Source: an uncultured virus (IMG/VR IMGVR_UViG_3300033075_001711)
Lineage: Duplodnaviria > Heunggongvirae > Uroviricota > Caudoviricetes
IMG/VR virus record: IMGVR_UViG_3300033075_001711
Strand: one strand, 5' to 3'
DNA length: 64,000 nt
Made by a program: the position numbers and the translations under genes. The notes under the pieces are model-generated. The model had not been told where the DNA came from and did not search any database. It saw nothing but the letters and a program-made list of their open reading frames with translations. Of the stretch, positions 2,255 to 49,947 are shown one piece after another; the first letter of the stretch is position 1; each line of letters starts with the position of its first letter.

Positions 2255-2530
2255 ATTCTCTCCTTTAGGTAAGATAGAACATTTTGGACCAAAATTTCAG
2301 GGTCCACATTTCTTATATCGTGTTTTTTATTTTGAGTATCTATGTGGACGTAATAATCTTGAACCTCTAGATCTGCCACAAAAACAAGTCTTAGATCAAA
2401 ATCTTCAGTAAAAATTCTTTTGTCTTTAAAAACTATAAACATATATGATTTACAACTATCTCTGTATACCAGATCATATATTTTATTTTCAAAAAGATTA
2501 TAAATACCATCATAGATGTTTTGTAAATTT

Positions 2531-3435
2531 TTAAAGACAGCGTTTTTTAATTTTTCTTTTTTGATGTTGGGGCCTGGGTCTTGTTTTCGCAGCGTTCAAA
2601 TCACGATCCATTTCTATTAAACAATCCTGATTTAAACACCTATATATTCTATCTGATAAAGACAAGTCTTTCTTGACTTGTCCGCATCTACTACACAATT
2701 TAGATGAAGGATAAAATCTATCTATGTATTTTACAGACCCTCCATACCAATATGTCTTATATTCTAACATTGTCCTGAACATACCCCAGCCAGCGTCCAT
2801 TATGGACTTCGCTAAATTATGATTACGGACCATGTTTTCTATACTCAAATCCTCAATAACAAATATTGTTGGCTTGGTTTTCACCAACAAACTAGTTATC
2901 TTATTTAATATATCTTTTCTTATATTTTTTATTTTATAATGGATCCTAGAAACCACTTTTTTAGCTTTTTCTCTATTATTAGATCCTTTTTGTTTTCTAG
3001 ATAGGTTACGCTGCGCGTGTTTTAATTTATGTTCATATTTATTATATGTTTTAGGATTATCAAACGATTTTCCATCAGAACAAACTAATAATGTTTTTAA
3101 ACCCCTATCGATACCTAAAATATTAGGAGGATTGTCAAGAGCCTTTGGCTCAGGAATGTCTTCTTCAACACATACTGAAACAAAATATTTATAGTTTTCT
3201 TTAGAGACAGTTACACTAAGAAATTTAATATTTTTATTTTCTGTAGAAGGAATATATCCAGACTCTTTTATTTTTAATAAACCTATTTTAGGGATTTTTA
3301 TTTTATTATTTTCAATTTTTAAATTAACATTGTCAAATCGAAAAGATTGTTTTGATCCATGTTTGCTTTTAAATTTTGGATATCCTGGAACCCCACCCGT
3401 TTTTATTCTTCTTAAAAAATGTTGAATATATTTTT
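2531..3435 (-). pseudogene. tnpB: TnpB remnant truncated at both ends
   Basis: Frame is open without a start from ~3435 (FLRRIKTGGVPGYPKFKSK...ILGIDRGLK...VIEDL...CSRC...DRDLNAAK); core is near-identical to 38565..39842 but the N-terminal ~95 aa and the right end are absent. Confidence 0.85.
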
Positions 3436-4137
3436 TATTTACGAGATAGATTTTATATATTGTTCAGCTAATGATCTTCTCTCATTAGTTTTATTCACAT
3501 GTTTCATGCAAGCACCATCTTTTCTGGTCCCATCTTCATTCTCATTATCACATTTTCCTTCATGCTCCCCAGCCTTTAACAGTTCTTTTAAATGATGAAG
3601 TAACATTTTTTCTTTTATTACTTTAGCTTCAAGTTCTTCATTAGATAGGTTGTTGCAATAGTTTAAACAATTCATAATTCTTCTAGCATTAGATTTTGTG
3701 AAACAATCTGCTACACCTATTCCATAAGTATCTTCAGCTTTTTCATCATACTCATAAACAGATTTATTGTCTAAAGTATAATATTTAATTTCAACAGATT
3801 TTTCATTATCTTTAAATTGTTCTAGAAAATGTCCATAAGTTATTTTAAATGGTTTTCGCATTTCATTTCTCCAAATAAATAGAATAGCCTCACAAATTAT
3901 ATTTTGATTTTATCTGACTTTTCATATTCTGATATCTTTATAATTTTTGTATCTGTTAACTCTAAATTTTCTAGTTCTTTTTCAGTAACATACCCTAATT
4001 CTTCGTTATCCTCAAAATATTTTGCTTCTTCATATGTTTTAAATAGTTTTATATTTTTAAAATTATTTGTTAATTGATTTGTTTTACTCAAATAAACAGT
4101 TTTACCAGTTCCATAATTTCTTCTTACTCCTTCAAAC

Positions 4138-4630
4138 TTAATTAGATAGCTCATTTAGTTTTCCTACAAAATTAATGTTTTTAATTACTTCATTTTTCCA
4201 AATACAACCGCTTGAACAATCCCAGAAGGAGGTCCAAAAATATTTTGCTTTATATTTATACCTATCAAAATTTCTCAACTCTATCCCAGAAAAATCAGAC
4301 ATTACTTTTCGCCAATCTATACTCATTCTCCACATGTAGTATTTATATGATGGGTCCAGACTATAATTTTCATATAGTTTATCCAAATCTGAAAGTTTCT
4401 CAATTATAAATACATTATCTAAATCTATATCTAATTCAAATAAATAGGAACCACACCCCATTTCTCCTTCAGCCCACTCAATCCATGAATTATTTAAACC
4501 ATACCAAAATCCCATGTAAATCTGGATGAGAATAAAAAGTTTTAAATGGAAACTTATTCTTATTAAACTCAATTATATTCTCAAGACCTTTATCAAGATC
4601 TCGATTATTAGAGGTGTGAATTCTCTTCAT
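4138..4630 (-). pseudogene. Probably frameshifted hypothetical gene
   Basis: SD-led N-terminus (MKRIHTSNN...) and C-terminus (GFWYG...SWIEW...WDCSSGCIW) are in different frames overlapping near 4510. Confidence 0.4.
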
Positions 4631-6126: not shown

Positions 6127-7478
6127 TTCATAAAGAATAATGTTATATAACATCGTTCCATGATATTTATATTACAATATCCTATTGTTAAAAACTAATA
6201 TTATAATGATAAAATCTTTAAAATTTCATATTAAAAATCTTAACTCTCATCAATTTGAGATGTTAAATAATATGTGCGTTAGCTCTCGTAAACTCTACAA
6301 TTGTGCTGTTTACGTTTGCAGGGCATATTTTGAAACTAATAAGAAATATATAGGTTATTTAAAACTTTATCACGAGATGAAGGATAATATGCATTATAAG
6401 GCTTTACCAGCCAAAATAGCGCAGCAAATCCTTAAACTACTAGATAAAAATTATATATCTTTTTTCAAGTTATTAAAGTTAAAGTTGGCAGGACAATATG
6501 ATAAGGATGTCTCGCCGCCTAAATTTAAAAAGAAAAATTCTAAATTTATTCTCATTCTACCAAATGACCAAATTAAATTTAGAGACTCTTATTTAAAAAT
6601 AACAAAAGATATTAAAATGCCATTTTCTTATCCTGGGTTAAATCCCAATGATATTAAACAGGCTATCATTATTCCTTCTAATTATGACCAGAAATATTTC
6701 ACTTTATGTTTAACATATCAAGCAGAATCTAGTTCTTCAGAAAAAGATAGTGCAAGGATGTTAAGCATAGATTTAGGAATAAATAATTTAGCATCATGTT
6801 TTTCAAATGTTGGGCCTTCATTTATTATGAATGGCAAACCTCTTAAATCTTATAACCAACTTTACAACAAAAGAAAATCTGCTTTTCAATCTGAATTGCA
6901 AATATGTAATAAATTAGACTATTCCAAAAAATTAGATCATCTTAGTGAAAACAGACATAATTGGATCAATAATTATTTCAATCAAACAATTTCTTATATT
7001 ATGAAGTTTTGCAAACAATATGATATAGGAAAAATCATTTTAGGTTATAACCAAGAATGGAAACAAGATATTAACATTGGCAAGAAGAACAATCAAGCCT
7101 TTTGTGATATTCCGTTTTTCAAATTTAAAAGAAAATTAATTTCTAAATGTTTGGAAAACAATATAGTTCTTGTTATTCAAGAAGAGAGTTATACATCTAA
7201 ATGCTCATTCCTGGATAATGAAAGGGTTGAAAAACATGATCAATATCTAGGAAAGAGAATAAGAAGAGGTTTATTTAAAACGAGTAAAGGAACCTTGTGC
7301 AATGCAGACGTGAATGGTGCTGCAAACACAATGGAAAAGCATGTAGTTTCCGAGTTAGGGTCTGTGGACAAGAACAAGGAAATAGAGGGCTATATAGTTA
7401 GTCCTGTAGTGTTAAAGACACCATTTAATAGGATGTCGTTAACCTGCGAAGCATAAAATTCATGATTTTTTGTAACTA
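6127..7478 (+). mobile_element. TnpB-only IS607-like insertion interrupting a Zn-ribbon gene
   Basis: Opposite strand to neighbours; TT at both junctions; removing it restores the frame ...CKCQCKFSYE-TNIIRDINSTGYFYSIKCPGC. Confidence 0.75.
6185..7456 (+). CDS. tnpB: TnpB RNA-guided nuclease with rearranged RuvC-II (likely start ATG 6206)
   Basis: SIDLGINN (RuvC-I), IILGYNQEWK (Gly at the usual Glu), QEESYTSKCS, NADVNGAAN (RuvC-III). Confidence 0.9.
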   Translation: MLKTNIIMIKSLKFHIKNLNSHQFEMLNNMCVSSRKLYNCAVYVCRAYFETNKKYIGYLKLYHEMKDNMHYKALPAKIAQQILKLLDKNYISFFKLLKLKLAGQYDKDVSPPKFKKKNSKFILILPNDQIKFRDSYLKITKDIKMPFSYPGLNPNDIKQAIIIPSNYDQKYFTLCLTYQAESSSSEKDSARMLSIDLGINNLASCFSNVGPSFIMNGKPLKSYNQLYNKRKSAFQSELQICNKLDYSKKLDHLSENRHNWINNYFNQTISYIMKFCKQYDIGKIILGYNQEWKQDINIGKKNNQAFCDIPFFKFKRKLISKCLENNIVLVIQEESYTSKCSFLDNERVEKHDQYLGKRIRRGLFKTSKGTLCNADVNGAANTMEKHVVSELGSVDKNKEIEGYIVSPVVLKTPFNRMSLTCEA

Positions 7479-9068: not shown

Positions 9069-11551
9069 ATAAATCCTTTTTATTCATCGTTCCAACATTG
9101 ACAACCTCTGTCACTGTTCCAACAATGATTACAAATTTCTTGTAAAAGAGAAAGTGTTTTAATAACTTGAAATTTGTCCATATATTTTAACATAGAGGAA
9201 ATAAACAAATTGTCTTTTTCATAAATAGATATTTCTCTAGTCATTTCCAACAACACTTTATCTACTTCAGGCCCGAAATCTTGAGGTGGAATGTTATTAT
9301 AGTCACAATCATTCTCAAGATGGTTAGAATATTCACTGTATTCATATTTAGAATTACATAGTCCACAAGTTGTTAACATAGAATATCTACCTAAAAAATA
9401 AGTAACAAATTTAAATTGTTGGATATTTCAACTGCACTCCAACCAAGGTTTTTATAGTATTGAATAATAAATTTTTTTAAAGCTATCTCATTCTTTAAAA
9501 TTTCTAAAAATTTTGAATTTAGAATATTTTTTAAATCTATTTCAAATGTTAAAGCATAATTTTTATCAAATTCAAGTTTATTTTTAATATATTCGTTTAT
9601 TGGAATAACTCCATCTCTAATATCATATCCCAAATCATATTTCTTATTTAAGAGTCCACAAACAACTACGCTAGCATTTAACTCAGATTTATATCCTAAC
9701 ATATTACATCCTTTTTACTTTAAAGATTATTTTTTTGTAGAATATTATCAATGTTTAAAGGACATGATTTTTGTTCACAAACCATATCTGTGCTGTTTTC
9801 AGGATGCTTACATATAGCTGGAAATTTTAAATGAACACAATTTTTAAAACTATCTACAATTAACCAATCTGTTTTTGAATTAAAAGACATTTTTAATTTC
9901 CTTTATTTTTGAGTGTTAATTTGTTTTTATATTGTTCAATTGCAGAGGAAAGATCAGACACTAAATCTTCTGCAATATTAAGACTTTCCTCATAACCATT
10001 GCCGTCATATGCTCTTTTTCTAACAAAACCATGAAAGCATGAGTCAATATCAGATAATACTTCTTTTAACTCAGATTCATATTCCTCTTTCGTCAACCTT
10101 TCTTTAGATGGAATAAGGTTGTATGTACCTGCTAAATTTTTTTCTAATTTTCCTTTATTTATTTTAAAAGTATAAACTTCTACTTTTACAGGAACAGGAT
10201 TTTTTCTTGGAGTTCTCAGGTTAGATTTAAACCAAAGTGTGTCCTGAGCAAATTTTTTAAAATGTTCAGATAGAAAATCTTTTTCAATTGTATCAAAATA
10301 TTCTTCTGTTGTACCATCTGGTTTGTGAATAACTGCGGATACATCAATCATTGTTTTTTTCCTTTTCAGTTAATTTTACTACAACACAGGATAAAATTCA
10401 AGAGTATAACCTTCGGAAAGTGCTCTTGAATTAAAAATAGGTAAAATTAAAGTTCTGTCATCTTTTTTTAAATCCTCAAATTCAAAATTAAATTTTTTTG
10501 AAAGTTCTTCTAATAAAATAAAAGATAAAGATCCAGAAATGTTACCTAATATTTTAGCAACATAGCTTTTTGCTTCGTTAGGATCTCTGAAACATCCTAA
10601 AGTTTTACATACATGGGAATCTCCATAATATGGATCCCAATCAAATTTGAAATGTTTTAAAATAACTATTTCCATATTTTTATACTCCTAATTTAGAAGT
10701 TAATTTATCAAAATGCTCTTCTATGGTATAAACTAGCCATTTTGTTTTTGTAGGGCCTCTCCACATAAATTTATCTACTTCTACCACATCAGGATAATCT
10801 TCATGATATGTTCTAATTTCAATATTAGGATTTTCACCATCGAACATTTGTAAAGAAACTACAAATTTATTTTCCATATCTTGAGATATAATTTCATATT
10901 TTGAAACCTCTAATATTTTTATGTTTTTATTTTTTTCACAAAGATTTTCTAAAGCATTTACTACATAAAACAACATTTCTTGAAGTATAAACATTAATTA
11001 TTTCCTAAATGTTAAGGTGTAAAAATAAACCATATTTTTCATATATAGGCTTATATCCTGACATTCCGGTTGGCCGATGTTCTGTAACATTTCTGTTATT
11101 AGTCTCAATTTTAGATCCGATCCAGCCTTCACCATTAAAATAAATTTCTATCAGCTTTCTAAAAATGTCGTTATTAAAAAGTTTATAGTCTTTCTCAACA
11201 AATATTTCTTTTAAATCCAATGTAAATCCAGTTTGAATATCAAACTCCATTTTTTGGAGATGTTTTTCTATTTCATTTATTATCCTATCAAATTCTATTT
11301 TTAGTTGATCACCCAAAGATTCTTTGATAATGAAATAAGCTCGCATTTTTAATTTTCCTTTTGATAAGCAGGAGTTATTTCTCCAACAATTTTTGATTCA
11401 ATTGGGAACCCATAATATTCTAATGGTAAAGAATATTTTTGTTTTAGATAAGCATATATTTTACCCTCACCTATCCCAAACGCTACTACATATTCTTTAT
11501 TATAGAATGTTTGATATAAATCTCTAACAGCGTCTTCTATTGAACATAAAA

Positions 11552-11842
11552 TCATTTTAATTTTCCGTAAATTTTATTTCTAGATGTCCAGCCATTAATT
11601 TTTCCATGATTGTTTCCTATTAGGAATTTATCTCCAGCCCCATTTACGGCTTTCACTAAATGTAAGTAGATATTTCCTTTGACTTTACAAAAAACTATAT
11701 CATTTACATTTATTTTAGATTCAGGGGTTATGGGAGACACAGTAACTGTGTCTCCTGAATATATTAATGGAGTCATGGAATTTCCATGTGGTTTAAATGT
11801 AACTTCAGATCCAGATTGGAGTTTTGGAATTAAATGTTTCAT
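11552..11842 (-). CDS. S24/S26-type peptidase-like protein
   Basis: GNSMTPLIYSGD Ser motif followed by DIVFCKVKG..LHLVK. Confidence 0.7.
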   Translation of the reverse strand: MKHLIPKLQSGSEVTFKPHGNSMTPLIYSGDTVTVSPITPESKINVNDIVFCKVKGNIYLHLVKAVNGAGDKFLIGNNHGKINGWTSRNKIYGKLK

Positions 11843-12336
11843 GAATTATATTTATGCCACTCTGATAGGTACCAATCCCGAGCCATTTTTGATACTTGAG
11901 GCATAACATCTTTGACAGCAAAATTATTTCCTGTGATTGTGTCAGTTTCTTCTTTGATAATATCTTTGTTTACCCACTCTAAAAATTTACCTGTGCTTTT
12001 TTGTGTAATTTCAAAATTATTATCTTTAAGAAATTGAATTCCTTGTTCAAGTCTGGCTTTTGTCACAAAAGACTCTGCCAATTCTTTTACAGAATTAAGT
12101 TTTTCAATGTCAATAGATGCAATTGTGGTTACTTTCGAAATGCTGTGCTCACGACCCTTACATTTGAACGTTAGTGAATTTAGGTGATCTTGTGTGAGAT
12201 AATTTGCTGTAGTAGATATTGCACGTAGAACTAGTCCTTCCCCGCATAAATTTATTTCTATTTTTATTTTTTCATTTAATTTAGAGACTATTTTGTTATC
12301 ATTTCCAAATTCATTTAAATTTAATATATATTCCAT
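11839..12336 (-). CDS. Rnl2-like RNA ligase, C-terminal half of a split gene
   Basis: Motif IV GEGLVLR, motif V FKCKGREHS and the Rnl2-like C-domain (VTKARLEQG...DIIKEE). Confidence 0.8.
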   Translation of the reverse strand: MEYILNLNEFGNDNKIVSKLNEKIKIEINLCGEGLVLRAISTTANYLTQDHLNSLTFKCKGREHSISKVTTIASIDIEKLNSVKELAESFVTKARLEQGIQFLKDNNFEITQKSTGKFLEWVNKDIIKEETDTITGNNFAVKDVMPQVSKMARDWYLSEWHKYNS

Positions 12337-12339
12337 TTT

Positions 12340-13311
12340 TTATTTCTCCTTATCTAAACATCTGACTTTCCAACCATCTGTGGATTTTAATTTAAAAGGT
12401 TTCTTTTTAAATTTAATAATTCCATCTTCACATATATTTTTTGGTGCAGGTCTTTGTAATCCATTAACATTAAAAAATTTTCTAAAATTAAATGTTTTAT
12501 ACTCATTTCCTTCTAAATCTGTTATAACCCATCTAAAAGAGGTGGCACCCCCAAAAATTCCATTTTTGACACGATCATCTTCTTTATGCACTCTATGGAA
12601 GTTTCCTTCCCAATCTTTAACAGTTGTAAACCCTTTCCGCATCTCTGATAATTTATTCTTTAAAAGGTCATTATGTTTCCTATCCTCATTGGGGTGTTTA
12701 TATTTACTCCTATCTATTTCAAAATCTTTTTTGGCAATTCTAATTTTTTGCCCTGTAGTTCTATCTATAACTGATAAGAATCCGGAAGTGTGTCCAACTA
12801 AATTGGTATTTGAATCAAACTCTTTTCTATCTACCCTAATTTTTTCTTTTGTCAATGTGTTGATAGCTATAACCTCATTTTTCTTTCCAAACATAGGATT
12901 GGAGGTACCAGGCAGAGGGGGTAATCTATAAGCCTTACCTTTGGAATAATTCTCACTTGCTAATTTAGATAACATTTTTTTATGCTCATAAGATATTTCC
13001 ATCCCAAAAAACCCATTAACACATGCAAAAGACTCATTAAAATAATCTTTAGATTTAACAACATCTTTTTCTTTTTGTAATCTAAGTTCTTCAGATAGCG
13101 CCTCTTTTCGTGTTTTATGTGTTGATAGAATCTCTATATCAAATAAATGCCTGTTATTCTTAATTTCTTCTTGAAAAATTTTTTTCCATTTTTTAGACCT
13201 AACACTTCCCATATACCCTTTATCGATTTTATTTTTAGTTGTTGACCCAATATAATATTTAGGCAACTTGTCTCCACTATATGTCACCAAATAAACTACA
13301 AATATTTCCAT
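12340..13311 (-). CDS. GIY-YIG homing endonuclease (Seg-like)
   Basis: VVYLVTY...YYIGST, GYMGS, EALSEE, YFN, then NUMOD-like NPMFGKK and RKHND..KNKLSE. Confidence 0.85.
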   Translation of the reverse strand: MEIFVVYLVTYSGDKLPKYYIGSTTKNKIDKGYMGSVRSKKWKKIFQEEIKNNRHLFDIEILSTHKTRKEALSEELRLQKEKDVVKSKDYFNESFACVNGFFGMEISYEHKKMLSKLASENYSKGKAYRLPPLPGTSNPMFGKKNEVIAINTLTKEKIRVDRKEFDSNTNLVGHTSGFLSVIDRTTGQKIRIAKKDFEIDRSKYKHPNEDRKHNDLLKNKLSEMRKGFTTVKDWEGNFHRVHKEDDRVKNGIFGGATSFRWVITDLEGNEYKTFNFRKFFNVNGLQRPAPKNICEDGIIKFKKKPFKLKSTDGWKVRCLDKEK

Positions 13312-13313
13312 TT

Positions 13314-14162
13314 TTATCCAAAATTAAATTTAATATAATTAACCCCTTTTGGGTAATCTTTTCTTTTTTCTTTTAAAAAATTATCTATTTTAGTTTTAAT
13401 TATTTCTGTAAAATTGTTTTCTTTTTCAAACCATATTTTTCCTGACTCATCTTCAAAAGCTGTATTATTATACAATACATAATCTAAAAATTTTTTAGCA
13501 ACAGGACATTCTTTTTCTACTGCTAAAGTAAGTTCAGCAAAATAATTTTGACTAATTTTTGGATTTAAAAAATCTACTTCATGAGTCCAGGTTTGAAAAT
13601 CATAAATGGATTTGAAATTAGTCAAATTATAATTATGCATAACATCTTGAATATCTTCCCTTTTTAACCAAACCCATTTTCTGTGATTAGTATCTACATT
13701 TTCGGTTTCAGTGTCTTGAACACCTACCGCAAAAACAACAAACATTTTTGGAAGTTGACTAACGCCAACCCCCTGTTGCACCCCCGAACCTGCCCATTCC
13801 CCAAAAATATTTAAAATAAAAACTCGGTTAGGTAATAGGGTTTCAAGTTTATCTGCAAATGATTTTAGAAGAGATGCTACAGCTTCTTTTTGGGAATCTA
13901 CAAATTTAGCAAATCCATAATTGTCATTGGTTACAGTAAGAATCTGATTACGGGATTGACACCAAAAATTTTCTGGATCTGTGTGGGAATTATAGGCAGA
14001 AATTCCAGAATTTGTGCCATGCAACTTAACGGTACCTTCAAAAGTAATTTTGGGTAGTGGCTTCTGAGCCATTTTAGCAAAATGCTTTACATCATGGCAA
14101 GTGTTTCGGAATTGTTCAATAGACGGAAATGTGACATGAACAGGCTTCATTGTAAGATTCAT
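13314..14162 (-). CDS. Rnl2-like RNA ligase, N-terminal half of a split gene
   Basis: FPSIEQFR, motif I GTVKLHGTN, QSRN, motif III FGEWAG, IIIa FVVFAV, VEKECPV; motifs IV and V are absent. Confidence 0.85.
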   Translation of the reverse strand: MNLTMKPVHVTFPSIEQFRNTCHDVKHFAKMAQKPLPKITFEGTVKLHGTNSGISAYNSHTDPENFWCQSRNQILTVTNDNYGFAKFVDSQKEAVASLLKSFADKLETLLPNRVFILNIFGEWAGSGVQQGVGVSQLPKMFVVFAVGVQDTETENVDTNHRKWVWLKREDIQDVMHNYNLTNFKSIYDFQTWTHEVDFLNPKISQNYFAELTLAVEKECPVAKKFLDYVLYNNTAFEDESGKIWFEKENNFTEIIKTKIDNFLKEKRKDYPKGVNYIKFNFG

Positions 14163-14198
14163 AAAATATGTTCCTCGCTAAGTTTTGCTAACAAATAT

Positions 14199-14227
14199 TA
14201 TATAGCCTCTCTACAGTGGTTTGTCAA
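14199..14227 (-). promoter_or_regulatory. Sigma70-type promoter of the ligase/endonuclease unit
   Basis: CCTCTTGACA-17 nt-TATATA. Confidence 0.7.
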
Positions 14228-14481
14228 GAGGATCAATTTAAAAATTTTAAATATCCGTCATTATCCTCATGAAATTTAAAAAACTCTTCTTGTGCGGCTT
14301 TAATTTTATTATCCAGTTTTATTTTTTCTTTTTGTAATAATTTTATTGCTGTAGTGTATTTTACATAAGCATGTTGAGAAGGTGAGAGTTTTGATAAAAA
14401 AATATTAGGCATAGTATAACAATAAAAAGCATTAAAAGGATCATAAACAACTGTTTGTGTGCTTTCTATTTTATTGTTATA

Positions 14482-14750
14482 TAGAAATATATGTAAGATA
14501 CATATATTTCTAAAAAACTTTTTATCCCATAAAATAAATGTTTGAATTATTGTATATAAGAATATGGTAAATATGAAGTCAGGAGCTTCGCTCCCCATTA
14601 CATATTTACTGTTCCCGGAAGGTTTCCGGGAATGTTGAAAGATTAAGAATCTTTCAAATAGAACACTCAGGGAACAAATCGGAAAAGGATCCCAGGATCC
14701 CGAAAACCCGTAGAGTCCTATGAGGCACTAGACGCAGCTCTTACGGGGCG
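14482..14750. other. Non-coding cluster of perfect inverted repeats (candidate origin or structured ncRNA)
   Basis: Stems at 14482-14512, 14567-14609, 14612-14632, 14635-14657, 14687-14700, 14707-14747; locally GC-rich. Confidence 0.6.
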
Positions 14751-15398
14751 ATGTCAAGTGGGGAGGAGTTTACAGTCCCTCTTGTGAGTAAAGGGTATGA
14801 TAAAATGTATCATATTAATTCCAACTGTCGGACAGTATTTTATGAACTTGAACAATTTTTCCTAATCCATATCTATTAAAACAGTTATCGGATAAAATTA
14901 AAAACTCATCTTTTTCAAACATAGTTTTTTCCTTATTAAGATTCTAAATAGCTACATAACCACCAAGTAGGTTCAGGATTATTTGGCGCTAAATTATATT
15001 TAGAACAAAAATCCATTAAATATTTTTTATTTTCGGAATCAATTTCTAAATCACTAATTTCGATTTCTAATGGTTCTTCCCAATCTGATTTAATGCAAAG
15101 ATTAGGCAAAGTTAAAACTGGAGTATAATACTCATAACTTCCACATTTTACAATTTTTATTGGAATAGGATTCATTTCCTCCCATTCTTTTTTATGCTTA
15201 CAATATTGTTCTAATCTAGGATCAGAATATGAGTAACCGGGATTAAAATTTCCTCGTGCATTAAAAGGCTCAAAAATTGGCACAAAATTATTTTCTTTTT
15301 TCCACCAATTTTCTAGACCATCCTCTGTCCAAGGAAAAACATAATCTTCATTAAATTTAAATCCGTAAGCTAAAAAACTATTTGCTGATGAGGACATA

Positions 15399-22094: not shown

Positions 22095-22670
22095 ATGAAA
22101 AAATTATCAGAATATGCAAAGCAACATGGCATCTCCTACAGAACTGCCCATAACCATTTTAAACGTGGACTTATCCAGGGAGCCTATCAACTCCCCACCG
22201 GAACTATTGTCATCCCTGATTCTTACTCTGCCAATAAACCAGAAATGGTTTATCTTTATGCCAGAGTTTCTAATCAATCTCGTAAAAATGAACTTCAATA
22301 CCAAATTGATAGACTCATTACATTTACTAATTCTAAAGGTTTAACTATAAATAAAATTTTTAAAGAGATTGCGTCGGGAATGAATGACTCTCGTAAAGAG
22401 CTTTCTAAAATACTCGCAAAGCCCCCAACTAAATTAATTGTGGAACATAAAGATAGATTAACACGTTTTGGTTTTAATTATCTTGAAACACTTCTTTCTC
22501 AATTAGGTTGCGAAATTATTGTTATGAGCAGAGATTCTAATGAAGAAACAGACTTAATGAATGATTTAGTCTCTATTATTACTTCTTTTTGTTGTAGATT
22601 GTATGGGCTTCGAAGAGGCTCTAAAAAAGCATTGGAATTAAAATCTAAATTAAATGATCCGATCCAGTAA
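22095..22670 (+). CDS. tnpA: IS607 TnpA serine recombinase
   Basis: N-terminal MerR-like HTH, YARVS catalytic motif, EIASG, VEHKDRLTRFGF, DLVSIITSFCCRLYG. Confidence 0.95.
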   Translation: MKKLSEYAKQHGISYRTAHNHFKRGLIQGAYQLPTGTIVIPDSYSANKPEMVYLYARVSNQSRKNELQYQIDRLITFTNSKGLTINKIFKEIASGMNDSRKELSKILAKPPTKLIVEHKDRLTRFGFNYLETLLSQLGCEIIVMSRDSNEETDLMNDLVSIITSFCCRLYGLRRGSKKALELKSKLNDPIQ

Positions 22671-23961
22671 ACATTCACTTAAATTCTCTAATCCCTCTAA
22701 ATTAGAGACATTTCATTCTTTCCTCAAAGAATACAGGCGTTGCGCCTCTATTCTCATAGATTATCTCTGGACTCATGACTACTCCTGGATTTATAAAGAT
22801 CAAGAAAAAATATTTTCCATAAAGAAAAATTTACTTGAACTTCCTTCCATGCTTACTTCCGATGTTATTCAAAAATCTGGTTTAGAAACATTTCTCTCTG
22901 GAAGAGTTCTTAAATGTTTATTGACTCAAATTGCAGGTATGATCTCTGCTGAAGTAGAACTCCAAAGAAAAAGAATCTTTGTATTAGAAAAAAAGAAATT
23001 TGAAAATACCCCTCGTAAAAAATTAAAACATCTTATAAAAAGTATAAAAACAAATATACCTCAGAAACCCTCTACAGAGAACATTAACCCGGAACTAAAT
23101 TCTATTTGTGCTGACTTTAAATTTACTGAAGGAGAGTTTAATGGGTTCCTTAAACTTAAATGTCTAATTAATACCGAGCGTGGTTTTCACATTAACTTAC
23201 CAATTAAATTTACTAAACATTCAAATAAACTTCACTCTAAAGGTGGAGTTATGAAACCTTCTTTTCTAATCAATAAAAATTCTGTAGATATACGGTGGGA
23301 AATTCCAGATCCTGTTAAAGTTTTAGATGGTAAAATAGTTGGCGCTGATCAAGGTTTAAAATCTGTTCTTACATTATCTGATAGTCAAGTAACTCCTAAT
23401 ACGGACATACATGGACATTCCCTGGACTCTATTTTAGATAAATTATCCAGAAAACAAAAAGGATCAGTTAAATTCAAGAAAGCACAAGATCATAGAACTA
23501 ATTTTATTAATTGGAGCATAAACCAGTTAAATTTTAATGGTATAAAACAGATAAATTTAGAAAGAATTTGGAATATAGGGTTTAGAAATAAAACAAGTAA
23601 AAAATTAAGTCATTGGACGAATACACTAATCAGAGACAAGGTTGAGTCAAGATGTGAAGAACTTGGGGTCCAAGTACAGCATCAAGATTCTACATACAGA
23701 AGTCAGAGGTGTAGTGGTTGTGGACAAGTACGTAAGTCAAATCGGAAAGGGAAACTATATGAATGTATGAATTGCGGATTTATTTTAGATGCAGATCTAA
23801 ATGCTGCGAAGAATCATGAAACATTGTTGCCTGAAATCCCGAGGAATTTACAGAAACTCAGAATGAACATAGGAGCGGGATTCTATTGGTTAGAGTCAGG
23901 GTTTTATGATTCTGGGGGCAGGAGCCTTCAGTCTCTGCTGTCGAAAAAGGAAGTTTCATAA
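22654..23961 (+). CDS. tnpB: IS607 TnpB RNA-guided nuclease
   Basis: VGADQG, INLERI, SQRCSGCG...CMNCG Zn finger, DADLNAAKN; RuvC triad intact. Confidence 0.9.
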   Translation: MIRSSKHSLKFSNPSKLETFHSFLKEYRRCASILIDYLWTHDYSWIYKDQEKIFSIKKNLLELPSMLTSDVIQKSGLETFLSGRVLKCLLTQIAGMISAEVELQRKRIFVLEKKKFENTPRKKLKHLIKSIKTNIPQKPSTENINPELNSICADFKFTEGEFNGFLKLKCLINTERGFHINLPIKFTKHSNKLHSKGGVMKPSFLINKNSVDIRWEIPDPVKVLDGKIVGADQGLKSVLTLSDSQVTPNTDIHGHSLDSILDKLSRKQKGSVKFKKAQDHRTNFINWSINQLNFNGIKQINLERIWNIGFRNKTSKKLSHWTNTLIRDKVESRCEELGVQVQHQDSTYRSQRCSGCGQVRKSNRKGKLYECMNCGFILDADLNAAKNHETLLPEIPRNLQKLRMNIGAGFYWLESGFYDSGGRSLQSLLSKKEVS

Positions 23962-38542: not shown

Positions 38543-39895
38543 CGTTCTAAAAGATTTACTCAAATTATAATTCCATTCCTGAAATTTCTAACTCATTACT
38601 TTTTTCTTGCTTCTCAGAGTCCTGTAACTCTCCACAAGCTTTAAACTCAGAGCCATCAGGCTCCTGTTTTCGGACGGAACTCGCCCTAGTTTTGCCCAAA
38701 CTACACGCCTGAGCCAAATTCTTCGCAGCGTTCAAATCACGATCCATTTCTAAACTGCATATTTCACAACGATATGTCCTCTCGGACAAATCTAATTTAT
38801 CTTTCTTATTATTACAATTACTACACAATTTAGATGAAGGATAAAATCTATCTACATATCTTACAGACCCTCCATACCAATATGTCTTATATTCTAACAT
38901 TGTCCTGAACATGCCCCAGCCCGCGTCCATTATGGACTTGGCAAGATTATGGTTACGGACCATGTTCTCTATACCTAAATCTTCTAACACGAATATTGTT
39001 GGTTTGGTTTTCACCAACAAACTAGTTATCTTATTTAACACATCTTTTCTTATATTTCTTATTTTATAATGGATCCTAGAGACAACCTTTTTAGCTTTTT
39101 CTCTATTATTAGACCCTTTTTGTTTTCTAGAAAGAAAACGCTGTGCGTGTTTTAATCTTTTCTCATATTTATTATATGTTTTAGGATTATCAAACGATTT
39201 TCCATCAGAACAAACTAATAATGTTTTTAAACCTCTATCGATGCCTAAAATTTCTGGAGGATCGTCCAGAGCCTTTGGCTCAGGAATATTGAGTTCAGTT
39301 TGAACAGACACAAAATATTTATAGTTCTCTTTTGATATAGTTAAATTAAATATTTTATGCGTTTTATGTTCAGAAAAAGGGAGATAATTCTTTTCTTTTA
39401 ATCTAACCCACCCTATTTTAGGAATCTGAATGTGAGATTCTGTTATATTTATAGGATTAACATTAGAGATTCTAAAAGATTGTTTAGATCCGTGTTTACT
39501 CTTAAATTTAGGAAACCCAGATTTTTCTTTGTTTTTGACCCGTCTAAAGAAATTTTTAAAGGCTGAGTCCAAGTCGGAGAGAGCTTCTTGAGGAATACAT
39601 TTAGAGACTTCGTAAATCCAAGGAAACTCAGATTTCTTTTTTGAACATAAAATTTTATGAAGATCATAATTAGATAAATATTTCAGTTTAGAACTATCTA
39701 ATTTATGATTTTCATAAGATTGTTTGAGGAGGTTGAGGCCCCAATTGTAGGTGAACCTTGAGGTACCGAAGGCTTTCTCGAAGAGAGAAGCCTGTTTGTT
39801 GTTGGGCCTGAGTTCGGATTTATAAGATTTGTTAATTTTCACTTATTATAATATACAAATTATTTCTCTTTTTTAACATAATAAATTTATACTTT
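38543..39895 (-). mobile_element. TnpB-only non-autonomous IS607-like element (left end approximate)
   Basis: tnpB followed by an IS607-style right end (AAGCTTGTGGAG...TTTGAGTAAATCTTTTAGAACG); no tnpA. Confidence 0.75.
38565..39842 (-). CDS. tnpB: TnpB RNA-guided nuclease
   Basis: HTH_OrfB N-terminus (FGTSRFTYNWGL), GIDRG, VLEDL, PSSKLCSNC, DRDLNAAKN. Confidence 0.95.
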   Translation of the reverse strand: MKINKSYKSELRPNNKQASLFEKAFGTSRFTYNWGLNLLKQSYENHKLDSSKLKYLSNYDLHKILCSKKKSEFPWIYEVSKCIPQEALSDLDSAFKNFFRRVKNKEKSGFPKFKSKHGSKQSFRISNVNPINITESHIQIPKIGWVRLKEKNYLPFSEHKTHKIFNLTISKENYKYFVSVQTELNIPEPKALDDPPEILGIDRGLKTLLVCSDGKSFDNPKTYNKYEKRLKHAQRFLSRKQKGSNNREKAKKVVSRIHYKIRNIRKDVLNKITSLLVKTKPTIFVLEDLGIENMVRNHNLAKSIMDAGWGMFRTMLEYKTYWYGGSVRYVDRFYPSSKLCSNCNNKKDKLDLSERTYRCEICSLEMDRDLNAAKNLAQACSLGKTRASSVRKQEPDGSEFKACGELQDSEKQEKSNELEISGMEL

Positions 39896-48833: not shown

Positions 48834-49007
48834 TTAAATTAACAATTTTCGAAGATAGTTTTTATCTTTGGTTATGATAGGCATTTCACGATCTGTGATC
48901 CAAAGATTTCTTTCATATTTTAAACCATCTTTTTCAAATTCTTGTGTTGTTTTATAAAAAGCAGTTCCACGTTTAAGGTGAGTTTCTAGATTATTCCAAT
49001 TTATTTT
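48834..49007 (-). pseudogene. 3' remnant of a Thg1-like (tRNA-His guanylyltransferase) gene
   Basis: Startless frame KINWNNLETHLKRGTAFYK...RNLWITDREMPIITKDKNYLRKLLI matches the recalled Thg1 C-terminal pattern INWN-x6-KRG...W-x2-D-x3-P. Confidence 0.7.
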
Positions 49008-49947
49008 TTATTTTTCGCATCCACTTATTTCCGGCACTTGCTATATTGTCCTCTGTTTTCTCATTATAAATTGCAGCTATTTCTTTCCAAGTTTTATTTT
49101 CTTCTCTAAGAATTGAGATATGTTTTAATTGATCTTCAGAAAATTTTATTTCATATTTATCCCTACCCGGAACATATATTTTTATTTTTTTTAAATGATA
49201 TCGGACTAAACTATGATCACAACCTATTGTTTTTGATATTTTATATATAGAAAAACTTTTATTATATAACTCACAAATTTCAATGATTTCATCCTGAGTT
49301 AAGTGTTTTACAGTATTGTTTTTATATTTTAAACTTTTATATTCTCGATAGTTCCACCTGTATTTGTAACATTCCACTGGACAATTTCCAATATATTTTA
49401 GAAATTTTTCACTATGTTTTCTTGGAATAATAATTATAGGTTGATTTTTTTTCTTGTCAACGTATATTTTTGGTTCCAATTCAGATAGTTGTGGAGATAT
49501 TATATTCACAAGCTCTTGTTCTTTAAAACAATTTGTTGCTATACCTAAACTACTATATTTTTTATCTATATAACCATCCCCTAAATACAAAAATAAACAA
49601 TTTGCCGGAGTTAATATTAAATTTTTTGGGATTTTAGTTTTTTTACCGTTTTCATACCATTCCGAATATATTTTAGTATACTCATAGTTAACTTTTGTGT
49701 TAAAATAGTATCTTGAATATTCTTTCTGAGTTCTTTTATCAAAATATGAAACGTGTTTTATCACATAATTAAAATTATGAAATTGATTGTATACAAATTG
49801 AACTGCTTCTTTATATTTTGAGGTATAGGAAAAATATGGTGTTTTACACCTAGGAGCTAGATGAAGGCAACCATCTCCCAATAGACACCCTTCTAAAACT
49901 TCTCTCTCGTACTGTGTTAACATATAATAATTTCTATTAAAAAACAC
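48991..49947 (-). CDS. LAGLIDADG homing endonuclease with C-terminal HTH
   Basis: VLEGCLLGDGCL and LFLYLGDGYI; SIYKISKTIGCDHSLVRYHLKK. Confidence 0.9.
   Translation of the reverse strand: MFFNRNYYMLTQYEREVLEGCLLGDGCLHLAPRCKTPYFSYTSKYKEAVQFVYNQFHNFNYVIKHVSYFDKRTQKEYSRYYFNTKVNYEYTKIYSEWYENGKKTKIPKNLILTPANCLFLYLGDGYIDKKYSSLGIATNCFKEQELVNIISPQLSELEPKIYVDKKKNQPIIIIPRKHSEKFLKYIGNCPVECYKYRWNYREYKSLKYKNNTVKHLTQDEIIEICELYNKSFSIYKISKTIGCDHSLVRYHLKKIKIYVPGRDKYEIKFSEDQLKHISILREENKTWKEIAAIYNEKTEDNIASAGNKWMRKIKNKLE

Follow-up and report, generated by a model that had tools for sequence, protein, structure and literature searches.

The closest described counterpart of the locus reported here is the split ribonucleotide reductase of phage Aeh1, in which, according to Crona et al. 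(2011; PMC3045599), a C-terminal tail on NrdA-a and an N-terminal tail on NrdA-b arose with the insertion of mobE and are essential for activity. Aeh1 ribonucleotide reductase has so far been the sole experimentally supported case of an endonuclease that brings tails that neutralize the break, and because this case is confined to one phage, the evolution of such tails could not be addressed. Herein we describe an RNA ligase gene carried by a 64,000-nucleotide stretch of DNA from an uncultured virus of the Caudoviricetes (IMG/VR record IMGVR_UViG_3300033075_001711), called the window hereafter. This gene probably represents an Rnl2-like phage RNA ligase that was broken before motif IV by a mobile cassette composed of a tail, an endonuclease gene and a head, wherein the two appendages serve as assembly pieces and no splicing takes place.

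The locus consists of three consecutive minus-strand open reading frames (ORFs) at 13314..14162 (282 amino acids), 12340..13311 (323 amino acids) and 11839..12336 (165 amino acids). These lie back to back, with 2 nucleotides separating the stop codon of the ligase N-half from the ATG of the endonuclease gene, and 3 nucleotides separating the endonuclease stop codon from the ATG of the ligase C-half. An earlier note, made from the letters of this DNA, had interpreted the arrangement as a fractured ligase with an endonuclease between its halves, and had assigned motifs I through IIIa to 13314..14162 and motifs IV and V plus the C-terminal domain to 11839..12336. Both assignments agree with our alignments, in which the invariant columns comprise the lysine region of motif I together with motif III in the N-half, and GEG (motif IV) and K-x-K-G (motif V) in the C-half; we take these columns to be the nucleotidyltransferase motifs of those names. 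As judged from the motifs, the break falls immediately before motif IV, such that motifs IV and V reside on a different chain from the lysine motif and motif III.

Each half can be divided into a ligase body and an appendage. By profile, the body of the N-half (residues 1-225; 13488..14162, minus strand) carries motifs I, III and IIIa and extends to the ECPV..F segment. It is followed by a C-terminal tail of 57 amino acids (residues 226-282; 13317..13487, minus strand) that is lacking from unsplit ligases, and then by the stop codon at 13314..13316. The C-half begins with an N-terminal head of 30 amino acids (residues 1-30/31; 12247..12336, minus strand), which is likewise lacking from unsplit ligases and is conserved in 14/14 heads aligned. 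The body of the C-half (11839..12246, minus strand) contains motif IV, motif V, a helical C-terminal domain and the stop codon. Thus the appendages that the earlier note had noticed are present, albeit somewhat longer than it had claimed (57 versus ~50 amino acids for the tail, and 30 versus ~25 for the head). A Shine-Dalgarno-like AAGGAG, read directly from the sequence, is located within the 3' end of the endonuclease ORF, 9 nucleotides before the ATG of the C-half (12346..12351, minus strand), and might serve as its ribosome-binding site.

Evidence that the tail and head are true additions comes from an unsplit allele. A protein search yielded 1250 matches, of which 120 are among the matches listed. 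One of these, P0002, is an unsplit ligase of 364 amino acids that is identical to the window protein at 222/225 positions of the N-half body and at 126/134 positions of the C-half body. Only five residues lie between ...AKAF and GEG in this protein, where the window has the 57-residue tail, the endonuclease gene and the 30-residue head. Alignment to such unsplit homologs therefore delimits the appendages, which are missing from P0002-type ligases. The window protein departs from P0002 at three positions on the N side, none of them more than 15 residues from the junction.

At the level of DNA, the segment 12220..13493 (no strand assigned) is exchanged for 45 other letters in the empty-site allele of close phages. 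The corresponding joint (12219->13494) was seen in contigs from 4/4 sequencing runs compared, which represent two studies of sludge-type metagenomes. The unsplit contig has 9/907 letters changed on the N side, where the differences listed adjoin the joint, whereas on the C side 41/620 letters differ, and these are scattered over the end of the ligase gene and continue into its neighbor. Such an uneven pattern is compatible with an exchange boundary at the endonuclease, without proving one. Thus, a presence/absence polymorphism at a single site distinguishes genomes that are otherwise near-identical (99% identity on the N side).

Assignment of the broken gene to the RNA ligases is supported by both halves. 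The N-half matches Pfam RNA_ligase PF09414 (E 7.9e-11; 42.8 bits against a cut-off of 27) and phrog_548 'RNA ligase' (E 1.7e-30), and the C-half also matches phrog_548 (E 1.9e-18). The unsplit P0002 scores 35.7 bits with TIGR02307, below the cut-off of 197. Because the PF09414 cut-off is passed and the TIGR02307 cut-off is missed, the ligase is considered to be a member of the Pfam family and not an equivalog of T4 Rnl2. There is no PDB match by sequence for the ligase, and its similarity to T4 Rnl2-type structures is low in sequence.

An AlphaFold2 model of the N-half has a mean predicted local distance difference test score (pLDDT) of 86.7, with values of 90-93 for the blocks of the tail. 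VIA-align superposes residues 7-221 of this model on residues 0-201 of T4 Rnl2 (Z 11.1, root-mean-square deviation 3.5, 175 residues aligned), and Foldseek matches the model to the T4 Rnl2 nucleotidyltransferase domain with an E value of 1e-7. Similar values were obtained across the structures of T4 RNA ligase 2 (2HVR, 1S68, 2HVQ) and Trypanosoma REL1 (1XDN), with Z 11.0-12.0, root-mean-square deviations of 3.3-3.5 and 175-180 residues aligned. These enzymes are single chains, whereas the window ligase is broken right before motif IV.

The tail is not peculiar to the window. Among the 120 protein-search matches listed, 21 are short relatives of 255-284 amino acids that cover 95-98% of the N-half with 35-42% identity, and the alignment reveals that the tail is common to all of them except P0058. 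A tail profile built from six sequences was also compared with 1.84 billion representatives, which gave 17 matches, of which four are repeat proteins and 13 are true. In 13/13 true matches, the tail is located at the C terminus behind the ECPV segment of a ligase N-half. None of the 13 carries the tail internally in an unsplit protein, and none places it on a gene family other than this ligase. The same residues were therefore not encountered as an ordinary insertion in unsplit homologs. Likewise, the hope expressed earlier that such appendages would surround endonucleases in other split genes was disappointed, and a general clasp serving other endonuclease-split genes is not supported by the profile search.

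The tail profile was used to fetch 12 IMG/VR loci and 14 metagenome loci, where some loci of the two sets derive from the same contigs. In 12/12 IMG/VR loci, an N-half with tail is followed by a C-half with head, broken at the same site, and a GIY-YIG ORF lies between the halves in 11/12 (the exception, L005, is described below). The whole arrangement is present in 12/14 metagenome loci, and the other two end at contig ends. A search with the C-half at similar lengths returned only the window protein and one truncated unsplit ligase, and hence the heads were taken from these loci.

Close pairs of loci (among L001/L002/L005/L006 and L008/L020) were used to estimate selection from the ratio of nonsynonymous to synonymous divergence (dN/dS). 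The tail yields values of 0.03-0.13 in seven close pairs, indicating strong purifying selection, and the ligase bodies of the split loci yield 0.02-0.20. Constraint on the tail is thus no weaker than that on the ligase bodies. In the L001/L002/L005 pairs, the synonymous divergence of tail plus head is below that of the flanking ligase bodies, which suggests either that the cassette was shared more recently or that constraint at the nucleotide level has been added.

A maximum-likelihood tree was constructed from 56 ligase N-bodies, each trimmed at the CPV motif, of which 23 are split and 33 unsplit. The unsplit rows are 33 of 34 picked from the matches listed (P0040, which is without the motif, was dropped), and the near-duplicates P0011 and P0014 as well as the divergent-tail rows P0058 and P0114 were left out. 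On this tree, the split label needs 10 changes, compared with a mean of 18 for shuffled labels, and 0/500 shuffles are as low; well-supported branches force at least 4 changes. The window ligase groups with P0002 and P0003 in a clade of 15 rows that is otherwise unsplit. Since the tails are homologous throughout while the split label is scattered on the tree, the cassette has been repeatedly gained or lost and moves as one piece. The suggestion that the appendages are carried by a mobile endonuclease cassette thus gains support from the empty-site allele, from the restriction of tails to N-halves and from the scattered distribution of split forms.

The middle ORF (12340..13311, minus strand) is predicted from profile matches to encode a free-standing GIY-YIG-type homing endonuclease, herein called 'type A'. 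It matches phrog_10820 (E 2.3e-29) and phrog_314 'homing endonuclease' (E 1.5e-14), and scores 19.8 bits with Pfam GIY-YIG, below the cut-off of 22.6. In a family scan of its relatives at E <= 0.01, GIY-YIG was found in 4/8 (best 1.1e-4) and NUMOD3 in 2/8. The window enzyme is 54-66% identical to those of 6/8 endonuclease-bearing loci compared and 47% identical to that of L010, whereas identity falls to 23% for L007. The last of these represents a second, unrelated GIY-YIG type that fills the same slot. This 'type B' is I-TevI-like and 257-271 amino acids in length; the L007 copy matches TIGR01453 (E 1.3e-33), and type B was also recognized by eye in L019, L024 and L026. In locus L005, the endonuclease gene has been deleted (L005 4172..4291), leaving ~120 nucleotides that still encode the last type-A residues, and neither the two ligase halves nor their appendages have been damaged. 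Therefore, the appendages are kept when the endonuclease is deleted, as in L005, or exchanged for type B.

Folded alone, the tail is predicted to form a strand-strand-helix-strand arrangement (pLDDT 90.9, predicted template modelling score 0.74), and the same fold is found within the N-half model. Searches for relatives of the tail-alone model yielded little: Foldseek gave no match at E <= 0.001 (best E 0.8), a VIA-align comparison with 48,161 chains produced no match at Z >= 5 (best 4.4, representing common strand-helix arrangements only), and ESM Atlas gave no usable lead (feature scores of 0.91-0.92, with 89-96 of 256 features shared and template modelling scores of at most 0.51). When tail and head were provided together for complex prediction, the interaction prediction score from aligned errors (ipSAE) was 0.38 (0.38, 0.41 and 0.38 in separate runs), compared with 0.01 for the best of three controls. 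Contacts are reproduced between runs to at least 92%, with partner pLDDT values of at least 69. The mark used for such predictions is reached by 116/157 solved complexes and by 2/215 mismatched pairs; at ipSAE values of at most 0.60, it is reached by only 18/157 solved complexes and by both of the passing mismatches. As suggested by the alternating hydrophobic pattern of the head, the head may add strands to the tail. The proposal that tail and head clasp one another is thus weakly supported by the prediction.

Two possible sources of the appendages were considered and rejected. Partial duplication of the ligase, which would make tail and head degenerate copies of adjoining ligase segments, was prompted by overlapping phrog_548 ranges of the two halves (5-239 versus 170-337) and by a few tblastn matches that enter the tail, but hhalign gave probabilities of 0.5% for the tail and 0.1% for the head against 34 unsplit ligases. 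Origin from the endonuclease fared no better, with hhalign giving a probability of 0.1% each for tail and head against eight type-A endonucleases.

These observations can be accommodated by the following scheme. The cassette would have three parts, namely the 57-residue tail on the N-half, the free-standing GIY-YIG gene and the 30-residue head on the C-half. In a mixed infection, the endonuclease would presumably cleave the cassette-free, unsplit ligase allele, and the resulting break would be repaired from the cassette-bearing genome. Because homology between the alleles begins only outside the tail and head, these two segments would be copied together with the endonuclease gene. The three proteins would then be translated separately, with the AAGGAG serving as a separate ribosome-binding site for the C-half. 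If the Aeh1 NrdA tails are taken as a guide, tail and head would act as protein-level assembly pieces that tie the fragments together where the unsplit enzyme has a five-residue loop, such that the strands of motifs IV and V re-enter the nucleotidyltransferase core. One chain of the resulting composite active site would supply the adenylylated lysine and its partner chain motifs IV and V, and neither RNA splicing nor protein splicing would be required.

Several points count against a clasp of this kind. The head yields dN/dS values of 0.28-0.83 and, at only 30 codons, is too short to judge, such that selection on it is either weak or unmeasurable. The lower synonymous divergence of tail and head could instead reflect constraint at the DNA or RNA level. 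The opposite charges seen with the Aeh1 type are half present, since heads are acidic (isoelectric points of 4.1-5.0 in 10/10 measured) while tails range from 5.4 to 9.1 and the window tail is neutral, with a net charge of 0. The tail-head prediction, made with the appendages alone as input, is only a weak pass. Moreover, the Aeh1 study indicates that its tails are not needed for NrdA-a and NrdA-b to bind and are needed only for the later dimerization of the heterodimer (PMC3045599), and so the notion of a 'clasp' may mislead even for tails that are essential. The tail and head might then cap or stabilize the surfaces exposed by the break, or promote higher-order assembly, without holding the halves to each other. 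Confident folding of the tail model in the absence of the head would also suit this explanation. It and the clasp are the two readings that we regard as live, although we judge it to be unlikely. The end of the tail and the start of the head coincide with a point at which the unsplit chain runs on uninterrupted, as would be expected from the geometry of a joint domain, and unrelated controls in the complex prediction reach only 0.00-0.01 compared with 0.38 for the tail-head pair. Furthermore, Rnl2-type ligases are not known to depend on oligomerization.

The alternatives that dispense with a two-piece enzyme assembled from its fragments seem less probable still. If the halves were inactive and the appendages served the selfish element as expression signals, homing homology or target-site protection, then the reduced synonymous divergence in tail and head would fit as nucleotide constraint or recent transfer, as would the location of the putative C-half ribosome-binding site inside the cassette. 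We nonetheless consider this improbable given that both ligase bodies are under purifying selection with all catalytic motifs invariant, that the constraint on the tail is at the protein level, and that the halves and appendages of L005 persist intact after loss of the endonuclease. It is very doubtful that the appendages are an unusually small, non-canonical split intein, or something similar, that ligates the halves covalently. The gene order does correspond to that of the reported 'fractured genes' (Dassa et al., 2009; PMC2677866), and the ligase family hosts true inteins at other sites. However, consistent with the earlier reading that intein features are absent, neither the first tail position nor the position after the head has a conserved Cys, Ser or Thr (29 N-halves and 15 C-halves), and neither half matches Pfam intein or Hint families at E <= 0.1. 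Mini-inteins are ~130 amino acids in length, and tail plus head total ~87, which is well under this size. The tail model also has a helix of 18-20 residues, and no intein appears among the best 50 matches of either fold search, although the latter is inconclusive alone. Least credible of all is removal of the interruption at the level of RNA, whether through splicing of a group I intron or through translational bypass, such that the appendages would be intron sequence that is open by chance. The type-B enzyme of L007 does belong to a family whose name refers to group I intron endonucleases, but there are 0 Rfam matches at E <= 1 on either strand of 11000..15000, the gaps of 2-3 nucleotides here extend to at most ~60 nucleotides in most related loci, and purifying selection acts on the tail as a protein. 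In this regard as well, the initial argument that there is no room for an intron was sound.

A bolder version of the assembly model, which we hold only as a tentative possibility, is that tail and head form an autonomous two-chain mini-domain that belongs to the selfish cassette, in effect an 'intein without chemistry'. Such a domain would move between ligase lineages, outlive its endonuclease or swap it for another, and render the insertion harmless.

Other interruptions of the same ligase gene were encountered among the related loci. In L003 2269..4171 (L015 is alike), the ligase is in three pieces. The first (2269..2631, 120 amino acids) extends through motif I and ends in its own unrelated tail of ~40 amino acids; it is followed by an antisense GIY-YIG ORF at 2618..3448 (minus strand, 276 amino acids). 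The second piece (3533..4171) has a short new head at its start and the tail studied here at its end. This layout points to a second endonuclease cassette with its own appendages in the same ligase gene. A different combination is seen in P0128, a ligase fragment of 244 amino acids wherein an apparent intein C-terminal end directly precedes the motif I region and the tail is located at the end, which suggests two different kinds of interruption in one ligase. Among the longer homologs, P0136-P0140 are unsplit ligases of 694-715 amino acids with the intein splicing domain PF14890 and LAGLIDADG PF03161. The idea that these five LAGLIDADG inteins occupy the same site as the cassette was rejected, since the intein lies in motif III in P0136 and P0140. 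The ligase gene thus appears to be a hotspot for several classes of mobile elements. One further predicted protein, P0125 (189 amino acids), has a central portion of a type-A endonuclease fused directly to the final stretch of a ligase N-half with tail, and is either a rearrangement or an assembly chimera.

The surroundings of the locus contain additional features. A 96-amino-acid ORF at 11552..11842 (minus strand) overlaps the ligase stop codon by 4 nucleotides and matches Peptidase_S24 (E 9.3e-6; 25.8 bits against a cut-off of 23.3), and the divergence from the unsplit-allele contigs runs on through this ORF. A scan of 11400..14700 for promoters and terminators found 19 promoter-like sites where 17.6 are expected, and one terminator-like site where 1.9 are expected, and was thus uninformative. 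By tblastn, neither a second ligase nor a paralogous endonuclease is present within the window. Three window ORFs, at 6185..7456 (plus strand), 22654..23961 (plus strand) and 38565..39842 (minus strand), match the PHROG 'transposase' family phrog_506 (E 1.3e-47, 1.7e-18 and 2.7e-121, respectively), and hence several copies of one insertion-element-type gene appear to reside within this 64 kb phage-like contig. A further mobile endonuclease is indicated by the ORF at 48991..49947 (minus strand), which matches the LAGLIDADG homing endonuclease family phrog_11023 (E 7.8e-24) and includes a D5-like regulator segment.

The value of the present case lies in the fact that the arrangement occurs here as a family: in addition to an unsplit allele, there are many diverged carriers, endonucleases of two types and one descendant that has lost the endonuclease. 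Such a family makes it feasible to test for selection on the tails (already seen for the tail), for movement with the endonuclease and for persistence after the endonuclease is lost. The enzyme is small and the relevant assays (self-adenylylation and nick sealing) are simple, making this a convenient system for biochemistry. In addition, the second cassette with its own appendages in L003 hints that clasp cassettes could constitute a general type of mobile element that has escaped notice, in which case they would be a source of natural split-protein connectors. A short natural pair that heterodimerizes could also serve in split-protein engineering.

Comparison with known systems defines what the ligase contributes. 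The concept of a third solution besides introns and inteins, which the earlier note had put forward as new, was already published for Aeh1 NrdA and mobE (PMC3045599). As described in that report, nrdA-a/mobE/nrdA-b resembles the ligase locus in that the catalytic core of an enzyme is cut by a free-standing endonuclease gene, leaving catalytic residues on two chains. It also resembles our locus in that each of the two fragments has its own unique tail where the gene is broken, unsplit homologs are without tails, and the tails are thought to arrive with the endonuclease, with neither RNA nor protein splicing involved there or, probably, here. The two differ in their components, which are a host ribonucleotide reductase and an HNH enzyme there but an RNA ligase and a GIY-YIG enzyme here. 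They differ also in breadth, since the Aeh1 split is described as unique whereas a conserved tail family spans many diverged phages and different ligase lineages here. Moreover, the Aeh1 tail is a short charged peptide, in contrast to the folded mini-domain that the models predict for the tail of the ligase.

As discussed in the same report, the T4 topoisomerase gp39/gp60 with mobA offers a further case of a phage enzyme interrupted at an endonuclease gene, and its tail-like extensions are speculated to aid assembly (PMC3045599). The 'fractured genes' with split inteins (PMC2677866) are reported to have an equivalent order of N-fragment with appendage, endonuclease ORF, and appendage with C-fragment, likewise from uncultured phage-like DNA. 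The ligase differs in that intein features and junction nucleophiles are absent, and covalent ligation is not expected from its appendages. Our literature searches, which did not cover subscription journals, found no published report of an endonuclease-split RNA ligase with tails. The ligase case therefore adds to the known Aeh1-type arrangement, and expands what was a single curiosity into an evolving family, testable with a simple enzyme.

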